Below the pieces are notes generated by a model, which ran no database searches, was not told where the DNA came from, and saw only the letters and a list, made by a program, of their open reading frames with translations. From NCBI GenBank assembly GCA_963707655.1, contig OY970172.1, positions 64,001-128,000 on the forward strand: a stretch of DNA of 64,000 nucleotides, written 5' to 3'. Source of the stretch: an uncultured bacterium. GTDB taxonomy: Bacteria; Babelota; Babeliae; Babelales; Vermiphilaceae. This document shows, piece after piece, positions 3,666-47,180 of the stretch (positions within the stretch are counted from its first letter, which is position 1; every line of letters begins with the position of its first letter). Both the position numbers and the translations under genes were made by a program.

Positions 3666-3717
3666 ACAGCCTACGACTCTTGCCGCTAATGTCAATTCTC
3701 TTCCTCAGAAGAAATGG
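3666..3717. repeat. ~50 bp imperfect direct repeat, second copy at 4399-4449
   Basis: ACAGCCTACGA...TAATGTCAATT(C/G)TCTTCCTCAGAAGAAATGG occurs twice. Confidence 0.85.
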
Positions 3718-3902
3718 TTTTGCCATTGGATTCGTCGAAACTTGGCAGAAAGGTCAGGGCAGTGGATATATCTGGACAGATTTTATGAGAAGAAATGGCC
3801 CGCAGATAGATTCTTGGGGAAATGGTAAGAGTAGAGTTGCTGGGAAGTATTTATCGCCCTACTACGCACGAGGCTTGGAAGGGCATACTTCGCTTAGTGC
3901 TA

Positions 3903-3969
3903 TCAATTTCAATTTATTGCGAAGTGTTTCCTTGAAAGACGCTGGCCTGCCATACGAAGCTTTTAGCGA
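3903..3969. repeat. ~65 bp imperfect direct repeat, second copy at 4281-4346
   Basis: TCAATTTCAATTTATTGC...TGGCCTGCCATACGAAGCTTT(T)AGCGA occurs twice. Confidence 0.85.
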
Positions 3970-3976
3970 AGTATGG
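3943..3976 (-). repeat. CCA-anchored palindromic element after tRNA-Ser(TGA)
   Basis: Minus strand reads CCATAC-TTC-GC-TAAAA-GC-TTC-GTATGG-C-AG-GCCA. Confidence 0.8.
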
Positions 3977-4065
3977 AGGAGAGAGAGGGATTCGAACCCT
4001 CGATGCCGTTCTCACGGCATAACGGTTTTCAAGACCGCCGCAATCGACCACTCTGCCATCTCTCC
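3974..4065 (-). tRNA. tRNA-Ser(TGA)
   Basis: GGAGAGA acceptor, anticodon arm GCGGT-CT-TGA-AA-ACCGT, long variable arm, TTCGAA, encoded CCA. Confidence 0.96.
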
Positions 4066-4131
4066 GTTTTTCAAGATTATAATTTCAATGTATGCGCAGT
4101 GAAGGGCCAGTAATTTATGTATTTCATTTAC

Positions 4132-4194
4132 TGGCGTCAGCCACTCGTAGTTTGCCAAGCAGGGCGAAGCGCCGCATGGATAAACGAAGAGTGG
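4132..4194 (-). repeat. CCA-anchored palindromic element after tRNA-Arg
   Basis: Minus strand reads CCACTC-TTC-GTTT...AAAC-TAC-GAGTGG-C-TGAC-GCCA. Confidence 0.8.
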
Positions 4195-4268
4195 TGCGCC
4201 TATTAGGAGTCGAACCTAAAACCTTCAGATCCGTAGTCTGACGCTCTATCCAATTGAGCTATAGGCGC
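4192..4268 (-). tRNA. tRNA-Arg(ACG)
   Basis: Cloverleaf with TCAGA-CT-ACG-GA-TCTGA and encoded CCA. Confidence 0.96.
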
Positions 4269-4446
4269 ATATTTCAATATTCAATTTCAATTTATTGCTA
4301 AGAGCTTCCCTTAAAGGGATTGGCCTGCCATACGAAGCTTTAGCGATACAGTCCAGTCTTCGCTTATCCGGGCCTTCAGGCTCGGCAAGCTATGACGGAC
4401 AGCCTACGATCTTGCTATTAATGTCAATTGTCTTCCTCAGAAGAAA

Positions 4447-4480
4447 TGGCGCTGCCAGCCGGAGCCTTGGCGTAGGCTGG
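4447..4480 (-). repeat. CCA-anchored palindromic element after tRNA-Ser(GCT)
   Basis: Minus strand reads CCAGCC-TAC-GCC-AA-GGC-TCC-GGCTGG-C-AGC-GCCA. Confidence 0.8.
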
Positions 4481-4570
4481 TGGAGAGAGAGGGATTCGAA
4501 CCCTCGCGCCCGGAATTACCCAGACTCTTGCTTAGCAGGCAAGCGCTTTAAGCCACTCAGCCATCTCTCC
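4478..4570 (-). tRNA. tRNA-Ser(GCT)
   Basis: CTTGC-CT-GCT-AA-GCAAG anticodon arm, long variable arm, CCA. Confidence 0.96.
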
Positions 4571-4804
4571 TCTGGCATTTCAAATAAATTTTATTGCAAC
4601 TCATAAAAGGATAAAGTATACCATATTTAATGCAATAATATTTTAAAAACTTAAGATATTGTAGCTGATTTTTTAGTGTTTGTATACTGGATACAATGAT
4701 TTTTGCTGCTTTATTCTACTTCGCCATAAAATTCTAGGGCTTTAGGCTGGAGATAAAAATGCGAGTAGAACTCTTAGAAGCCTTGGCGTAGTAGGGTCAG
4801 AGCC

Positions 4805-5116
4805 ATGAAACATTCAAGGATGCATTTGATTATCGAAATTAAAGTGGTGCCGAGCTCGGGAAAAATGCAATGGAAGCTGAATAAGGCGGAGCAATTGGTT
4901 TGTTATTTAAAGAGCCCGCCAGAGCGGGGCTTGGCAAATCATGAGCTCATTAAAGAGCTTTCAAAGGCATTAAAGATAGCCAGGGTAAATATTAGCATCG
5001 CTACCGGCCAAACATCACGGCTGAAAAGAATTGAAATTAAAGATGCTTCTATAACCTATGCTGATGTATTGCGATCCTTGGGAATCGAGCCGCAGTTGTC
5101 ACTTTTCAAGACATAA
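4805..5116 (+). CDS. DUF167/YggU family protein
   Basis: IKVVPSS...SPPERGLANHELIKELSK...IATGQTSRLK pattern; start may be 4820. Confidence 0.88.
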   Translation: MKHSRMHLIIEIKVVPSSGKMQWKLNKAEQLVCYLKSPPERGLANHELIKELSKALKIARVNISIATGQTSRLKRIEIKDASITYADVLRSLGIEPQLSLFKT

Positions 5117-5134
5117 GAAAGAAGGAAAACAACA

Positions 5135-6337
5135 ATGCCTTATTATGCATGGCAAGGAGTTACGCTTGCGGGTACCGTGCGTAGGGGGAAGATGTTTGCG
5201 CAATCACGCGAACATTTGGATAAACTTTTGTTTGAGCAGGAAATCGCGCTTCTTAAAGCAAAGCATGTTTCTGTCTGGTCCATTTCTGGCGTGCCTATTG
5301 CCACGCGATTACTCTTTTTTGATTCGTTAAAACACTTGTTGAAGGCCGGCCTGCGCTTGCCCGATTCTTTGCGCGTATTGAGTGAGCAGCAGAGTTCATC
5401 GGTGCAATTTCAAGCGGCAATTTATGCTATTGCCCATGACATTGATCATGGAAAAAGTCTCAGAGTTGCATTTCAGGCATATCCGGCATGGATCGATGAA
5501 ATTACGGTGGCGATGTTACAGATTGGTCAAGAATCGGGCTCTTTGCCACGCGCGCTTGAATTGATTACCCATCGCCTGCACTGTTCTATCCAATGGCGTA
5601 AAAAAATAAAAGCGGCAGCGCTGATGCCGATTATTACTTTGGCGTTTTTCTGTGCGGTTGTAGCACTTGTCTTTGTGATCATTATTCCCTCATTCTCATC
5701 ATTGCTTGCATCTCGGAAAGAAGCATTGCCGCTCTTCACCCATATTTTATTGCGAATGAGCAAGGCGATGACCAATGGTCGCTTCATGTTCTGGTCAATA
5801 AGCGCGGCGGCGCTGCTTGCCGTTGCGGCCCGTTGCGCAATAAAGACGAGTAGAGGGAGAAAGGCTTTAGATTTTTTATTGCTACACATTCCTTTTGTTT
5901 CATTGCTTATCAGGATGAAAGAGTATGCACTTTTCTTCCAGGCGCTTTCGCTTGTTATGCAACAGGGCGGGCATATTGCCATAGCCTTTCCCCTGGCAAG
6001 AGGTACGGTGCGCAATTGGTACGTGAGACAGGAGCTCTATCTTCTTGAGCAGGATGTAATGAGTGGAACTTCGCTGCACAAGGCAATGAGAACGCATAAC
6101 TTTTTCTCTCCTGAAAGTTGCGCCTTGGTGGGCATAGGAGAAGAAACCGGATCGTTAAGCATTATGCTTGAGCAGGTTTCTCGCGCTTATCAGGAGCGGG
6201 TAGACAAGCAGCTGGCAACCATGACAACGCTCTTTCAGCCACTGCTCTTGCTTGCGTTGGGATTATTGGTTGCGGCGCTTATTTTTGCTATTTATATTCC
6301 TCTTTTCCAGATGCCGGATAGCTATACATTTATGTAG
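5135..6337 (+). CDS. Type II secretion system F / PilC inner-membrane platform protein
   Basis: MPYYAWQG start, two T2SSF repeats (IGQESGSL, IGEETGSL) and C-terminal IYIPLF. Confidence 0.9.
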   Translation: MPYYAWQGVTLAGTVRRGKMFAQSREHLDKLLFEQEIALLKAKHVSVWSISGVPIATRLLFFDSLKHLLKAGLRLPDSLRVLSEQQSSSVQFQAAIYAIAHDIDHGKSLRVAFQAYPAWIDEITVAMLQIGQESGSLPRALELITHRLHCSIQWRKKIKAAALMPIITLAFFCAVVALVFVIIIPSFSSLLASRKEALPLFTHILLRMSKAMTNGRFMFWSISAAALLAVAARCAIKTSRGRKALDFLLLHIPFVSLLIRMKEYALFFQALSLVMQQGGHIAIAFPLARGTVRNWYVRQELYLLEQDVMSGTSLHKAMRTHNFFSPESCALVGIGEETGSLSIMLEQVSRAYQERVDKQLATMTTLFQPLLLLALGLLVAALIFAIYIPLFQMPDSYTFM

Positions 6338-6391
6338 GTTGTTTTATACTGTTTGTATAATAAATTTTTATTTTTATCTGGAGCTTATCAG

Positions 6392-8551
6392 ATGGTTACT
6401 GCATCGCATTTCAAAAAAAGCATCTTCTTTTTCGGTTTCTTTATCTTTGGTCACTCTACACAAGCAAGTATGTTTGTTCCTAATTTTGCGAAAAGCAGTG
6501 CAAATAATGCTACTCAGATTTGGCACAAAGAAGCAGAGATAGAAAAGCTTTTAGCGCTTGTGGCACCAGTATCAGGAGCTACCATTATACAAGAAAATGA
6601 ATGGAAAGAGCTTTTGTGCAATGCGATGATAGCAAAAATTAATCGCACGAATACCAGCTTTGGTGCGTGGGGATTAAAGCGAAGCTTTCACCCGGTTTCA
6701 GATGCTGTTGAGCTACGAGCCAGAAGGCAAAGAGTGCGTGATCTTGTTGAGCATGAAGAACTGTACACAAAATTACGGGATGCGTTAATCACTATCAAAG
6801 ACAATGAAGATGCGCTGTTATCATATTATAACGATACGAATGTGCTTCATAATGAAGCAAACAAAAGTTATTACTCGATTTTATTCCCCTCATATTTAAA
6901 TAAGAACAAGCTTGCCCTCGATGTATCTTTTGCTGTCGATTTAGCCAAGTATGGCTCTATGGCAGCTGCTTTTTTGGGAGTCTCCGGTATACTCAGCAAG
7001 CTCCACGCACCTGATCCTGCTGCCATGAGAAAAATACAGAACTTTAAAAATGAAGTTGCTCCTTTGGCCAATGGTGAAGACGTCATGGGCTGTAAGTACA
7101 TATGGGAACAATTATTTAAGCAGCCGGCGCAGGGTGAATCTTTGTGGGGCTCTTTTAAAAAAGGGTTAATGGCGCCGTTCGTAGCTCATGTTCCTTGGCC
7201 AGTTCGTTTTGCAGATGCCAATGAGCGCGATCTGATGCTTCAGCATCCGGCTCATTACGCGAATGCTATAGAAAATTCATTGGGTGATACTGTTGCGCTA
7301 TATACTGAAGGTTTTCAGTATCATAAGTCATTGGTGAAGATTGTTGCTTTGACTGGTCTAGCGATAAGTGATGCGCATGCGGCAACGGTGATGAAGGGGT
7401 TGGTGAGTATTGTTGCGTTTGGTGGTCTCGTGGCTAGTGATGCGCATGTGGCATTGATGCTGAAAATGAGTTTTGATCAATTGAAATCTGCTTGGGAAAT
7501 TTCTGATAAATTAAAAATTGAATTGGTAAAAGTTGCGCAGTTATTTAATGCTTTGGAAGCAATATGTTCAGCGGCAGAGCTATGTGAGAATCTTGAAGAG
7601 TCTGCTGCAATTGAGCATTTAAAGCAGCTATTTGATGCAAATAATGAATCATTGCATCCATTAATGACTCACATGCGTGAGATAGTCGATGGCTCTCAAT
7701 CGATATTTTATTCACGCGGTCGCATTTTGCTGCTGCACAAGTTGTTGCAAGATACAAAAGATGATTTGATTCCTTTCATGAATGATATTGCGCAGATTGA
7801 TGCGCTCGTTTCAATGGCTACCCTCTACAAAGAAGCTTCAGCTGAGCAGCCATGGTGCTTTGTTGATTTTGTTGATCATAAGAGGCCAATGATTAGAGCA
7901 GAAGATTTTTGGTTGCCACTCATACACACTGACAGTGTGGTGTTAAATTCAATTTCTTTGGGAGATAACGTTCCCGGAAAAGTGGTATTGACGGGGCCAA
8001 ATGGCGGGGGCAAATCAACAATTATGAAGGCTATTGCTCATCAAATTATTTTTGCACAGTCATGGGGTATAGCTCCTGCACGCGGTTCGCAGATGTCTTT
8101 GTTTACCGGGTTACGCACGGCATTGAATCCACAGGAAGATATTAAGCGTGGTCTTTCTACCTTCATGGCGCAAAAATTGCGCATGCAAGAAATAACAGAT
8201 TTTATTAGGTCATCGAAAGCGGACGATGTTTTGTTTGTACTGGTTGATGAGCCGTTTCGCGGTACGGTTGAAGCAGAATCACAAAAAAGAGTGTGCAGCT
8301 TTTCTCATGAAGTGGCATTGTATGACCAAACTCTGTTGATGATGGCTACACATTTTGAAAAGCCAACGCAGCTTGCTCTTTCTTTGCCCGCATATTATGC
8401 AAATTATCAATGTGAATTTACAAAAACTGATGATGGGCGCCTACAAAGAACCTATAAATTGCTTCCCGGAGCTGCTTTGTGGTGGTTTCATGACGATGCT
8501 ATGCGTAGCTTGTATATTGATTCTTTGGATTATACGAGCCTGGCAGCTTAA
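6392..8551 (+). CDS. MutS domain V-type ATPase protein with signal peptide and hydrophobic segments
   Basis: TGPNGGGKST, STFMAQ, VDEPFRGT and MATHF motifs; no mismatch-binding domain I; GGAG upstream of ATG 6392. Confidence 0.85.
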   Translation: MVTASHFKKSIFFFGFFIFGHSTQASMFVPNFAKSSANNATQIWHKEAEIEKLLALVAPVSGATIIQENEWKELLCNAMIAKINRTNTSFGAWGLKRSFHPVSDAVELRARRQRVRDLVEHEELYTKLRDALITIKDNEDALLSYYNDTNVLHNEANKSYYSILFPSYLNKNKLALDVSFAVDLAKYGSMAAAFLGVSGILSKLHAPDPAAMRKIQNFKNEVAPLANGEDVMGCKYIWEQLFKQPAQGESLWGSFKKGLMAPFVAHVPWPVRFADANERDLMLQHPAHYANAIENSLGDTVALYTEGFQYHKSLVKIVALTGLAISDAHAATVMKGLVSIVAFGGLVASDAHVALMLKMSFDQLKSAWEISDKLKIELVKVAQLFNALEAICSAAELCENLEESAAIEHLKQLFDANNESLHPLMTHMREIVDGSQSIFYSRGRILLLHKLLQDTKDDLIPFMNDIAQIDALVSMATLYKEASAEQPWCFVDFVDHKRPMIRAEDFWLPLIHTDSVVLNSISLGDNVPGKVVLTGPNGGGKSTIMKAIAHQIIFAQSWGIAPARGSQMSLFTGLRTALNPQEDIKRGLSTFMAQKLRMQEITDFIRSSKADDVLFVLVDEPFRGTVEAESQKRVCSFSHEVALYDQTLLMMATHFEKPTQLALSLPAYYANYQCEFTKTDDGRLQRTYKLLPGAALWWFHDDAMRSLYIDSLDYTSLAA

Positions 8552-8579
8552 GTTCTGTGGCTTTTTATTTTTCAAACAT

Positions 8580-8608
8580 TTGACGGAATCAGCTGTTTCT
8601 TATACAAT
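8580..8608 (+). promoter_or_regulatory. sigma70-type promoter for tRNA-Leu(CAA)
   Basis: TTGACG-17 nt-TACAAT. Confidence 0.75.
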
Positions 8609-8632
8609 TAATCGCAGTTAGAGTTGAAATAT

Positions 8633-8719
8633 GCCGGGATGGCGAAACTGGTAGACGCACGGGACTCAAAATCCCGCGGTGGCAACACCATGTCGGTTCG
8701 AGTCCGACTCCCGGCACCA
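8633..8719 (+). tRNA. tRNA-Leu(CAA)
   Basis: CGGGA-CT-CAA-AA-TCCCG, long variable arm, CCA. Confidence 0.96.
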
Positions 8720-8778
8720 GTCTTCGCCTACGTGGGAATGGCTTTGAAATGTAAGCTAGGATTCGTCTGGCGCTGCCA
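8717..8778 (+). repeat. CCA-anchored palindromic element after tRNA-Leu(CAA)
   Basis: CCAGTC-TTC-GCCTAC...GTAAGC...TTC-GTCTGG-C-GCT-GCCA. Confidence 0.72.
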
Positions 8779-8944
8779 GCCTATTTAAAGGATTGACAGA
8801 AGACTGGGTTTGCATCCTGCGTAGCTTAATAACACTCCAAAGTATTGCCATAAAGCGAAGCGGGACAAGCCAGTAAATGAAGTACATTAGATATAAAAAA
8901 GCTTGGTTCTCATCAGCGTTAGACCAGAAAAAATCAGAGAGTAA

Positions 8945-9298
8945 ATGGCAGATCTTAATTTTGATAAAAACTGTATCTTCTGCAAAATTATTGCGCGCGA
9001 AGTGCCCTCCGCTATTATTGCTGAAACTAATAACATTATAGTAATCAAAGATCTTTTTCCCAAAGCCCCCATTCATTATTTGATTATTCCCAAAAAGCAC
9101 GTGCAGGATATTCAATCATTACATGAAAATGATACTGCATTGGCGGGCGAGCTGATTTTGATGGCAAAGCAATTATCAACGCAGCTTAATGGTTCCAAGG
9201 CGTTTCGCTTACTGGTAAATTCAGGAGCAGATGTAGGGCAAAAAGTATTCCACCTTCATTTACATTTTCTTGCGGGTAAACAATTAACTGATTTTTAA
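8945..9298 (+). CDS. hinT: HIT family nucleotide-binding protein (HinT-like)
   Basis: CIFCKI and the HLHLH histidine triad. Confidence 0.93.
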   Translation: MADLNFDKNCIFCKIIAREVPSAIIAETNNIIVIKDLFPKAPIHYLIIPKKHVQDIQSLHENDTALAGELILMAKQLSTQLNGSKAFRLLVNSGADVGQKVFHLHLHFLAGKQLTDF

Positions 9299-9308
9299 GT
9301 ATCTATAT

Positions 9309-9395
9309 GCCGGGATGGCGAAATTGGCAGACGCACAGGCTTCAGGTGTCTGCGGTGGCAACACCATGTCGGTTCGAGTCCGACTCCCGGCACCA
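9309..9395 (+). tRNA. tRNA-Leu(CAG)
   Basis: CAGGC-TT-CAG-GT-GTCTG, long variable arm, CCA. Confidence 0.95.
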
Positions 9396-9423
9396 GCCTA
9401 TGCTCCAAGGGAGCTACGGCTGG
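9393..9423 (+). repeat. CCA-anchored palindromic element after tRNA-Leu(CAG)
   Basis: CCAGCC-TAT-GCTCC-AAG-GGAGC-TAC-GGCTGG. Confidence 0.8.
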
Positions 9424-9657
9424 AAGTAAGAGCATAGCCTGGACTGGGCGCCAACAGAATAAGTTTCTTCCCCCTACGTGGGAATAACATTGAAGGAAAT
9501 GTGTGGCGGGCCATGTCTTCACTTATCTAGATCTTTTGCTGTCGACGAATGGGTTTACCCACTATTAGTCAGATTTTTGACTTTTTTATGGCCATTTGTT
9601 ACTTTTTTATTATATTTACCGACTAATTGTAATTATTTTTTTAAATTGAGGTATTTT

Positions 9658-46862: not shown

Positions 46863-46948
46863 GGCGAGGTTCCCGAGCGGTCAAAGGGGACGGACTGTAA
46901 ATCCGTTGGCTATGGCCTTCATAGGTTCGAATCCTATTCTCGCCACCA
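46863..46948 (+). tRNA. tRNA-Tyr(GTA)
   Basis: ACGGA-CT-GTA-AA-TCCGT, variable arm, CCA. Confidence 0.96.
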
Positions 46949-47180
46949 GTCTTTGCTTATTCCGCCGCCGCCAAGGCTGTGGAGGACGCGGCCGGGCAAA
47001 AGAGAGCTCGGCGAAAGCCTGAAGAAGCTCGTAAGAGCGGAGGCAGGCAAGCTTCGTCTGGCTTTGCCAGCAAATGAAATATTTGATGAGAAAAATCGGA
47101 GACTGTCCGACGAAGCTTAACTCTTCCTGTCTGCCCGCCATAGCCTTGGCGACAGCTTGAAGTAAGAGCGCAGCCTGGAC
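46946..47180 (+). repeat. CCA-anchored element with nested palindromes after tRNA-Tyr
   Basis: CCAGTC-TTT-GCTT...AAGC-TTC-GTCTGG-C-TTT-GCCA (ends 47069). GAAGTAAGAGC..AGCCTGGAC is shared with 9423-9444. Confidence 0.78.

Follow-up and report, generated by a model that had tools for sequence, protein, structure and literature searches.

The nearest published counterpart of the repeats described here is the system of Ssn nucleases with their NTS/SRM hairpin repeats. As presented in the main text of the paper describing it (Chenal et al., Nat Commun 2025, PMC11893778), Ssn is a 94-amino acid (aa) single-domain GIY-YIG protein that binds an oriented hairpin repeat and cuts single-stranded DNA (ssDNA) upstream of the repeat, and it acts on neither double-stranded DNA nor RNA. 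Among the Ssn homologs, repeats flank both sides in 42%, and tRNA or tmRNA is mentioned 0 times in that main text. In this study, we analyzed a 64,000-nucleotide (nt) stretch (hereafter, the window), corresponding to bases 64001-128000 of the single 1,091,075-bp contig (41% G+C) that constitutes genome G000 of an uncultured Babelota bacterium, in which palindromic units run on from the CCA ends of tRNA genes. These palindromes are likely to form the end, on the tRNA side, of a small selfish DNA element that resides directly 3' of the CCA in tRNA and tmRNA genes. On this reading, a complete copy comprises the tRNA CCA, a head hairpin, an AT-rich spacer, a complementary arm, often a second inverted hairpin, and a gene on the same strand for an 80-aa GIY-YIG nuclease, and nearly all copies in G000, as well as all six in the window, are gene-less derivatives. 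The units are placed at CCA ends, covary through Watson-Crick pairs only, are asymmetric between strands, turn over at individual sites, are linked to the nuclease gene, and are nearly identical across phyla, and the element is mobile on evolutionary time scales.

ARAGORN identified 13 tRNA genes inside the window, and all 38 tRNA genes of G000 (38/38) encode their CCA. Six window genes (Ser-TGA, Arg-ACG, Ser-GCT, Leu-CAA, Leu-CAG, and Tyr) each pass from the CCA into a unit, as the first-pass annotation of the window had described. The unit begins at the tRNA CCA and has the layout CCA-NNC-TNC-G[inner palindrome]C-TNC-GNN-TGG-C-N(2-5)-GCCA, with an inner palindrome that varies in length from 9 to ~100 nt. 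In all window units except that of tRNA-Leu(CAG), thus in five of six, TGG is immediately followed by a C-N(2-4)-GCCA tail. Since both arms have TNCG on one strand, the unit falls short of a true palindrome and has a strand polarity; read directly, the opposite strand shows CGAAG, CGTAG, or CGGAG (CGNAG).

Covariation in this genome was evaluated with an alignment (A1) of 18 units of G000. The outer and inner stems were paired in 93.5% and 96.8% of cells, respectively, and the outer-stem pairs 5-52 and 6-51 each occurred as four Watson-Crick pair types. Twenty-four cells were changed on both sides and 0 on one side only, the covariation score was matched by 0/500 shuffles, and slid registers paired at 18-48% compared with 94.7% in the true register. 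The TGGC/GCCA tail was paired at 89.7% and showed no covariation. The covariation of the outer stem that had been proposed from the window copies was thus confirmed on the 18 units, with the reservation that the outer stems of the Leu-CAA and Tyr units are GTC/GTC, i.e., contain a T.T mismatch, and that short inner "stems" such as GCCAAGGC amount to merely 2-3 bp. Among 79 distinct units taken from other genomes, pairing was present in 96.1% of the cells and 116 cells were changed on both sides, in an alignment fitted to the model, which favours pairing. G-U pairs accounted for 3 of 751 cells in these units. Their near-absence points to a DNA hairpin rather than a selected RNA helix.

When tRNA trailers were read by eye, 20 of the 38 tRNA genes of G000 were found to bear a unit. 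The tmRNA gene of G000 (C1:970723-971115; L291 1840-1900), which was detected by Rfam (RF00023, 142 bits) though an ARAGORN tmRNA search of the genome found none, ends in a collapsed unit, CCATAC-TTC-GTATGG-CGA-GCCA. A hairpin scan that demanded an inner stem of 4 bp found 3 true units only and was dropped, because short forms have inner stems of 2-3 bp; it was replaced by a looser hairpin scan and a covariance model of the head unit (R1), which was used for G000 and its relatives. Perfect hairpins of unit form starting with CCA occurred 13 times in G000, 11 of them at tRNA CCA ends and 2 at remnants of a tRNA-Arg end; allowing one mismatch added ~20 chance matches, similar to the scan of its shuffles. 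Model R1 gave 25 matches in G000 at E<=1: 17 at tRNA ends, 3 at tRNA-Arg remnants, 1 weak match at the tmRNA end, and 4 elsewhere. It recovered 17 of the 20 units read by eye at E<=0.0024, and the Tyr, Gly-GCC, and degenerate Arg-CCT copies were not listed. Matches outside the training set of R1 were those at Leu-CAA and Leu-GAG and four non-tRNA matches. At gathering scores, Rfam detected tRNA and rRNA only in the window, and at E<=10, positions 3700-4700 gave just sub-threshold tRNA-derived matches. A tRNA-like fold was also considered for the 30-nt motif preceding the non-tRNA units and was rejected, as no T-arm is present; the motif was read instead as a remnant of a tRNA-Arg 3' end.

In a panel of 61 related genomes, R1 (cut-off E<=0.01) found matches in 47, with up to 40 per genome, and in a wider sample of 151 genomes it found matches in 105 (E<=1e-4). 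The best match adjoined a tRNA or tmRNA gene in 25 of 29 other genomes, and in a 26th the tRNA was cut by the contig end. In three complete or near-complete genomes (G017, G024, and G025), 56 of 104 matches began exactly at the tRNA discriminator base on the same strand, and 56 of 111 tRNAs were occupied. Placement at tRNA ends, which the first-pass annotation had proposed to test, was seen both in G000 and in these relatives.

Occupancy differed between close relatives. In two genomes of the same family (G034 and G014), 0 of 40 tRNA trailers were occupied, and R1 found no match in either genome. The same-genus genome G001 carries units at thirteen tRNAs and at its tmRNA. Its subfamilies differ from those of G000 at orthologous tRNAs; for example, tRNA-Ser(TGA) has a short TAC-type unit in G000 and a long ACC-type unit in G001, and tRNA-Met and tRNA-Leu(TAG) are occupied in G001 and empty in G000. 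At tRNA-Leu(TAG) of G001, two units stand in tandem, the second beginning right after the terminal CCA of the first. One site, that of tRNA-Ser(GGA), was identified together with a conserved downstream block and traced through six genomes of another genus: it was empty in G115, carried a GCT-, GTC-, and TAC-type unit in G010, G138, and G154, respectively, a rearranged TAC copy in G070, and a degenerate copy in G064. A fixed position with exchanged content suggests repeated site-specific insertion or replacement rather than a vertically kept processing signal. Copies exist in both orientations and at non-tRNA sites.

The head unit is part of a larger element. Its first arm, CA-NNC-TNC-G, has a perfect complement, C-GNA-GNN-TG, ~85-100 nt downstream, so that perfect inverted arms of 9-11 bp enclose ~85-100 nt, and the long-range helix between the arms is the minimum-energy fold. 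The interval between the arms contains a small pyrimidine/purine hairpin as well as an AT-rich stretch bearing TTGAYA...TAGCA. Past the distal arm, a second inverted unit (window 4353-4401) and unit fragments (4321-4346) are often found. The trailers of tRNA-Ser(GGA), tRNA-Ser(GCT), tRNA-Phe, and tRNA-Lys(CTT) share 85-91% identity over ~130 nt; because these tRNA genes are unrelated, this identity was not kept by descent. The second CCA, which follows the head unit, may represent a target duplication of 3 bp, as in a miniature inverted-repeat transposable element. In G000, the trailer of tRNA-Met(CAT) (C1:184368-184435) reads CCA-A-CCA-TTCAAAGG, which looks like the result of a precise loss of a head unit between the two CCAs; in G001, a full unit is present at the orthologous site.

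Matches to the GIY-YIG profile PF01541 differed with unit content: unit-free genomes mostly had a match of UvrC size only, and unit-bearing genomes had several small ones. The small proteins are of two types, a UPF0213-like type of 87-127 aa (BH0048, E 4e-17) and another of exactly 80 aa in most copies, which is 30% identical to the UPF0213-like type of the same genomes. In the 80-aa protein, PF01541 is the sole domain and takes up all 80 aa; its nearest solved relatives are UPF0213 BH0048 (E 6.5e-6) and SLX1, and an NCBIfam scan gave no family above its cut-off. A comparison of 20 sequences drawn from several phyla showed the catalytic-type residues Y5, Y17, G19, R27, H31, N32, and E63 to be invariant, and V4 and a YLKSGSG motif to be invariant or nearly so. 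The gene was found in 38 of the 61 genomes; all 38 were among the 47 unit-positive genomes, and none of the 14 unit-negative genomes had it.

The best 80-aa gene loci, one per genome, were surveyed in 30 genomes. Upstream of the nuclease gene, at a distance of 100-450 nt and on the same strand, 21 loci had a tRNA or tmRNA gene directly joined to a unit; five had a unit without a detected tRNA, two a tRNA without an R1 match, and two neither, one of these at a contig edge. In total, 26 of the 30 loci had a unit preceding the gene on its own strand, and units downstream of the gene were occasional (L146, G025). In-frame stops were present in 15 of 87 gene matches, which fits the decay of selfish genes. 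The only small GIY-YIG gene of G000 (C1:315763-316083) lies outside the window, 170 nt after a unit at 315558, in agreement with the earlier statement that no mobilising enzyme is visible in the window. The first-pass annotation had offered, as one of two readings, a non-autonomous element that targets tRNA 3' ends; the empty sister sites, the switches of subfamily, the identity among unrelated trailers, the copies in both orientations and at non-tRNA sites, and the linked GIY-YIG gene all argue for it. Of the enzyme links it had envisaged, that to GIY-YIG genes was found and that to RAYT/TnpA genes was not. As a separate observation, the UPF0213-like type is multi-copy in many relatives (L134-L139), and in G024 (C2:654156-654435; L115) such a gene lies among other GC-rich repeats, 28 nt downstream of a unit variant of the CCC...GGG form; this gene and variant may form a separate pair of the Ssn type.

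Spread outside the group was assessed by an exact pattern scan, because the wider "phylum" sample of 151 genomes yielded only labels of the same family or order. The exact 27-nt head motif CCAGCCTWCGCCAAGGCTNCGGCTGGC occurred at at least 121 loci. The record titles listed include TM6/Babeliales, Verrucomicrobiota (including Akkermansia muciniphila), Bacteroidota, Nitrospirota, Planctomycetota, Acidobacteriota, several Proteobacteria, Chloroflexota, and groups of the candidate phyla radiation. Among 60 examined loci, 35 abut a tRNA (24) or tmRNA (11) gene exactly and one more is within 8 nt; the 80-aa gene was present inside the 400-nt flanks at 27 of 80 loci. The protein itself forms at least 587 clusters at 90% identity, is mostly 80 aa long, and is 60-75% identical across phyla; the clusters bear only the names "GIY-YIG nuclease family protein" or, mistakenly, "excinuclease ABC subunit C". 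A tblastn search of plasmid and phage collections with this protein (E<=1e-10) gave no match. Two further observations concern coding potential: at one locus (L045; G013 C36, ~1400-1650), head-unit sequences recur in a coding-like repetitive region rich in Ala, Gly, and Pro, and in other phyla three unit frames (…AFAKASAG…, …SLRQGFGWQ…, and …PSPRLRLAG…) are open upstream of the nuclease gene.

Within the window, three head units lie close together on the minus strand. The short TAC-type unit at the CCA of tRNA-Ser(TGA) occupies 3943..3977 (G000 67943-67977; R1, 45 bits) and reads CCATAC-TTC-GCTAAAAGC-TTC-GTATGG-CAG-GCCA. Its element extension (3884..3942, minus strand) contains a pyrimidine/purine mini-hairpin together with an AT-rich spacer in which TTGATAGCA occurs, and its distal arm GCGAAGTATG (3884-3893) is the perfect complement of CATACTTCGC, located at the tRNA end; the long-range helix that results is the fold of minimum energy, with z = -2.4. 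A promoter or IHF reading of the TTGATAGCA spacer was examined by eye and rejected for mismatches in spacing and consensus. A long CTC-type unit is located at the CCA of tRNA-Arg(ACG) (4132..4195, minus strand; 39.6 bits), and a short GCC-type unit at that of tRNA-Ser(GCT) (4447..4481, minus strand; 51.7 bits). The extension of the latter (4400..4446, minus strand) has a TCTTC-TGAG-GAAGA hairpin, a TTGACATTAATAGCA spacer, and the distal arm CGTAGGCTG (4400-4408). The mosaic between tRNA-Ser(GCT) and tRNA-Arg(ACG) also holds, away from any tRNA end, a long-form inverted unit (CCAGTCTTCGCTTATCCGGGCC...GGCAAGCTATGACGGACA; 4353..4401, plus strand). A partial TAC-type unit without its 5' arm (4321..4346, minus strand), covered by a weak R1 match at 68321-68352 (E = 0.35), looks like an older copy displaced from a tRNA.

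The other three window copies are on the plus strand. The element after tRNA-Leu(CAA) spans 8716..8807 and comprises a GTC-type head unit with the T.T mismatch (8716-8778; 35.3 bits, outside the R1 training set, as noted above) and a distal arm GAAGACTGG (8799-8807) that pairs with CCAGTCTTC. After tRNA-Leu(CAG), a GCC-type head unit with a rearranged tail occupies 9392..9453 (32.3 bits); the head covers 9392-9426, and the tail ends in GCGCCA at 9453. A 14-nt string, CCTACGTGGGAATn, is present in the trailers of both tRNA-Leu genes (window 8727-8740 and 9472-9485), and these are its 2 occurrences in the genome. A long composite unit follows tRNA-Tyr (46945..47070), with a GTC-TTT 5' arm, ~100 nt of nested GC-rich palindromes, and then C-TTC-GTC-TGG-CTTTGCCAG; it is 85-87% identical to units at G000 positions 1006391, 1009337, and 1012190.

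Units also occur in cassette arrays outside the window. At C1:1004000-1018000 (L001) and C1:315500-318600 (L002), downstream of tRNA-Arg(TCT) and tRNA-Arg(TCG), tandem cassettes encode ~630-aa proteins, each with a partner open reading frame of 156-186 aa, and one of the ~630-aa proteins bears a C-terminal Colicin_D domain. Each cassette boundary bears GTTGCTGAAATAGNCCGATAGGG and the last ~10 nt of that tRNA-Arg, and most then carry a CCA-anchored unit. A tyrosine recombinase gene stands at the start of the larger array, and the boundary motif is also present in G024 and G025. These arrays look like integron-like toxin/immunity arrays recombining at the tRNA-Arg 3' end.

As for the mechanism of the proposed selfish element, the head hairpin would form in ssDNA and serve as the cognate site of the nuclease, by analogy with Ssn, and cleavage at or beside the hairpin would, on the same analogy, drive copying or insertion at tRNA ends. 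Repeated insertion at one CCA would displace older copies downstream; such outward displacement fits the mosaics, the decayed fragments on the distal side, and the tandem units that follow a unit's terminal CCA. The tRNA and the element are probably transcribed together, and the host probably tolerates the element since the hairpin would spare 3' maturation. The outer stem spans the junction, with an invariant CCA:TGG on the tRNA side and a freely covarying NNC:GNN on the element side, which suggests that the TGG arm may read the CCA of the target. A possible, though doubtful, extension is that the hairpin acts as a DNA guide or splint, in which TGG reads the CCA of a single-stranded gene end and GNN pairs with the first three bases of the element. 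In such a scheme, the junction would lie in the middle of a 6-bp helix, and a site-specific, DNA-guided insertion would be completed by the 80-aa hydrolytic GIY-YIG protein with the help of host repair or ligation. If so, this would be a transposition or homing mechanism of an undescribed kind, retargetable in principle by three bases, with a tiny hairpin-specific ssDNA nuclease family beside Ssn.

Several points weigh against the selfish-element reading. The action of the nuclease on the hairpin is, for this subfamily, carried over by analogy, and the reading does not account for the use of tRNA and tmRNA CCA ends over any other CCA. About half of the R1 matches in G017, G024, and G025 are located away from tRNAs; when 20 of these 48 remaining matches were inspected by eye, three were at tmRNA ends, one at a tRNA-like end, and two after the tRNA-Arg-remnant motif, and the rest were at other sites, some being CCC...GGG variants within other repeats. 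Nine of the 47 unit-bearing genomes lacked the gene by the query used, two of them being <70% complete, and the G000 copy of the gene has an intact core and a divergent, extended C-terminus. The right boundary of the element and any target duplication are not definable from the compared sites. The genome counts are drawn from related genomes and hence are non-independent. The exactness of the 27-mer across phyla may equally mean a host-level function, and an additional role at the RNA level is possible, the units being very likely transcribed with the tRNAs.

The best-surviving alternative, which we nevertheless regard as unlikely, is that the unit is a host-function trailer, i.e., a hairpin in the pre-tRNA that sequesters the CCA and directs maturation of the 3' end, shields this end, or acts as a terminator; the TGGC/GCCA tail would offer an alternative fold that frees the CCA, and the nuclease gene would be a passenger exploiting tRNA promoters. 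Units that always start at the CCA in the orientation of the tRNA, and that also lie between co-oriented tRNAs (Ser-Arg-Ser and Lys-Glu), would suit such a role, but inverted and non-tRNA copies exist as well. Whole-element RNA folds were more stable than those of shuffles (z = -1.5 to -3.6), yet the scarcity of wobble pairs described above is unusual for a selected RNA helix. With respect to termination, the six window stems are followed by C-N-GCCA and mixed sequence, not by a T run, and G000 possesses ordinary hairpin-plus-T-run terminators, for example after tRNA-Met at 838728; in many relatives, a T-rich (in RNA, U-rich) run does follow GCCA. A metatranscriptome contig covering the 3' end of tRNA-Ser and the head unit provides weak support, as carry-over of DNA is possible. 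In public sequencing data, at most 0.28 of the words were found in any run and at most 0.08 in RNA runs; the assembled contigs matching the region were mainly tRNA bodies of other organisms, with no transcript ends readable, one RNA-library contig spanned 3941-4004, and some contigs covered 4351-4408. The absence of units from all 40 trailers of the two same-family genomes and from 14 of the 61 related genomes, together with the switches of sequence type at orthologous tRNAs within a genus, argues against a host-function trailer. The 3'-trailer switch affecting tRNA maturation, the second reading of the first-pass annotation, is weakened by the Watson-Crick-only covariation and the absence from close relatives.

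A domesticated Ssn-like system, in which the host keeps nuclease and hairpins to cut ssDNA at tRNA and tmRNA ends, appears quite improbable. Such a system could limit recombination or island integration at favoured attachment sites rather than spread an element. It has a precedent in Ssn itself, a 94-aa GIY-YIG protein described as modulating transformation in the main text of its report (PMC11893778), and the cassette islands at two tRNA-Arg genes of G000 bear tRNA-end remnants followed by units. Nevertheless, the distribution is patchy even within genera, gene copies are decaying, many units are found in genomes without the gene, and subfamilies replace one another at a single site, all of which argue against domestication.

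That the units are REP/BIME-type repeats moved by RAYT (a Y1 HUH transposase), with CGNAG as a REP-like tetranucleotide as had earlier been hinted, is highly implausible and largely refuted: short imperfect palindromes, mosaics of both orientations, and a conserved flanking motif do occur, and the long-form inner stem contains CCGGATAAG, which we take to resemble E. coli REP, but the R1 matches in the genome are few, no Y1_Tnp (PF01797) match was found in G000, Y1_Tnp was present in 20 of 61 relatives with no relation to unit counts, five genomes with 24-40 units (G024, G002, G017, G025, and G029) lacked it save for a fragment in G025, G034 has 6 copies and zero units, and four Y1_Tnp loci had no flanking unit, with a best score of 10.6 bits.

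If the selfish-element reading is correct, a minimal element consisting of an 80-residue nuclease and a structured DNA arm is present in most bacterial phyla and homes to the one sequence that all tRNA and tmRNA genes have in common. Conserved "structured tRNA trailers", which might otherwise be mistaken for processing signals or small RNAs, would thereby be explained, Ssn would be joined by another family of tiny nucleases specific for hairpins, this one with a defined natural target, and it would become testable how a nuclease without a DNA-binding domain gains single-nucleotide placement. The element would also bear on tRNA gene annotation, island integration at tRNA genes, and cross-phylum horizontal transfer. 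In the full-text literature, subscription journals excepted, no GIY-YIG element or palindrome was found described at bacterial tRNA or tmRNA CCA ends; the element is thus apparently undescribed, its new feature being the anchoring at CCA ends.

Among known systems, GC-rich palindromes flank tRNA genes in Neurospora mitochondria, and mobile GC clusters occur in yeast mitochondria. As generally described, these resemble the present units in lying beside tRNA genes in AT-richer genomes and in having been debated as processing signals or mobile DNA, and they differ in being organellar, of other sequence, and without a known nuclease partner of such a kind. Integron attC sites (RYYYAAC/GTTRRRY) were considered and rejected, as the unit ends in CCANNC/GNNTGG instead; four tyrosine-recombinase matches were found at three places in G000, and no search aimed at IntI was made. 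REP/BIME/REPIN sequences share with the units the form of short, GC-rich, imperfect palindromes with mosaics in both orientations and a motif beside the stem, thought to act as ssDNA hairpins; however, the units number tens of copies rather than hundreds, are fixed at tRNA and tmRNA CCA ends, and are associated with a GIY-YIG protein instead of an HUH protein.

Free-standing GIY-YIG homing endonuclease genes are also known, such as segB of phage T4, which encodes SegB and lies in a tRNA gene cluster. They are similar in the location of the gene by tRNA genes, in presence or absence among relatives (seen here as occupied and empty alleles), and in decaying copies. In contrast to the 80-aa protein, homing endonucleases of this class carry DNA-binding domains, and the present element further differs in having a structured non-coding arm between tRNA and gene, in its many gene-less copies, and in being chromosomal in many phyla.

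The likeness to Ssn, as that system is portrayed in the main text of its report, extends to several features. In both, a tiny single-domain GIY-YIG protein of ~90 aa (80 aa here) is linked to an oriented, imperfect, multi-copy hairpin repeat, and a hairpin unit stands beside the nuclease gene, here upstream of it in the proportion of loci given above. The orientation of the repeat comes from non-palindromic flanks in Ssn and from TNCG on one strand in both arms here, and the ssDNA-only action of Ssn fits the Watson-Crick-only covariation of the units. On the other hand, the published SRM pattern, HGTCWYN(0-2)YYVSBRHN(0-5)WNVSBRGN(0-2)RNCYNB, overlaps just 1 of 22 units, and it gave 1 match in G000 compared with 2-6 in five shuffles. 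Relative to Ssn, which falls in CDD family cd10448, the 80-aa protein appears to represent a separate subfamily, and the anchoring at the CCA of tRNA and tmRNA genes is new.

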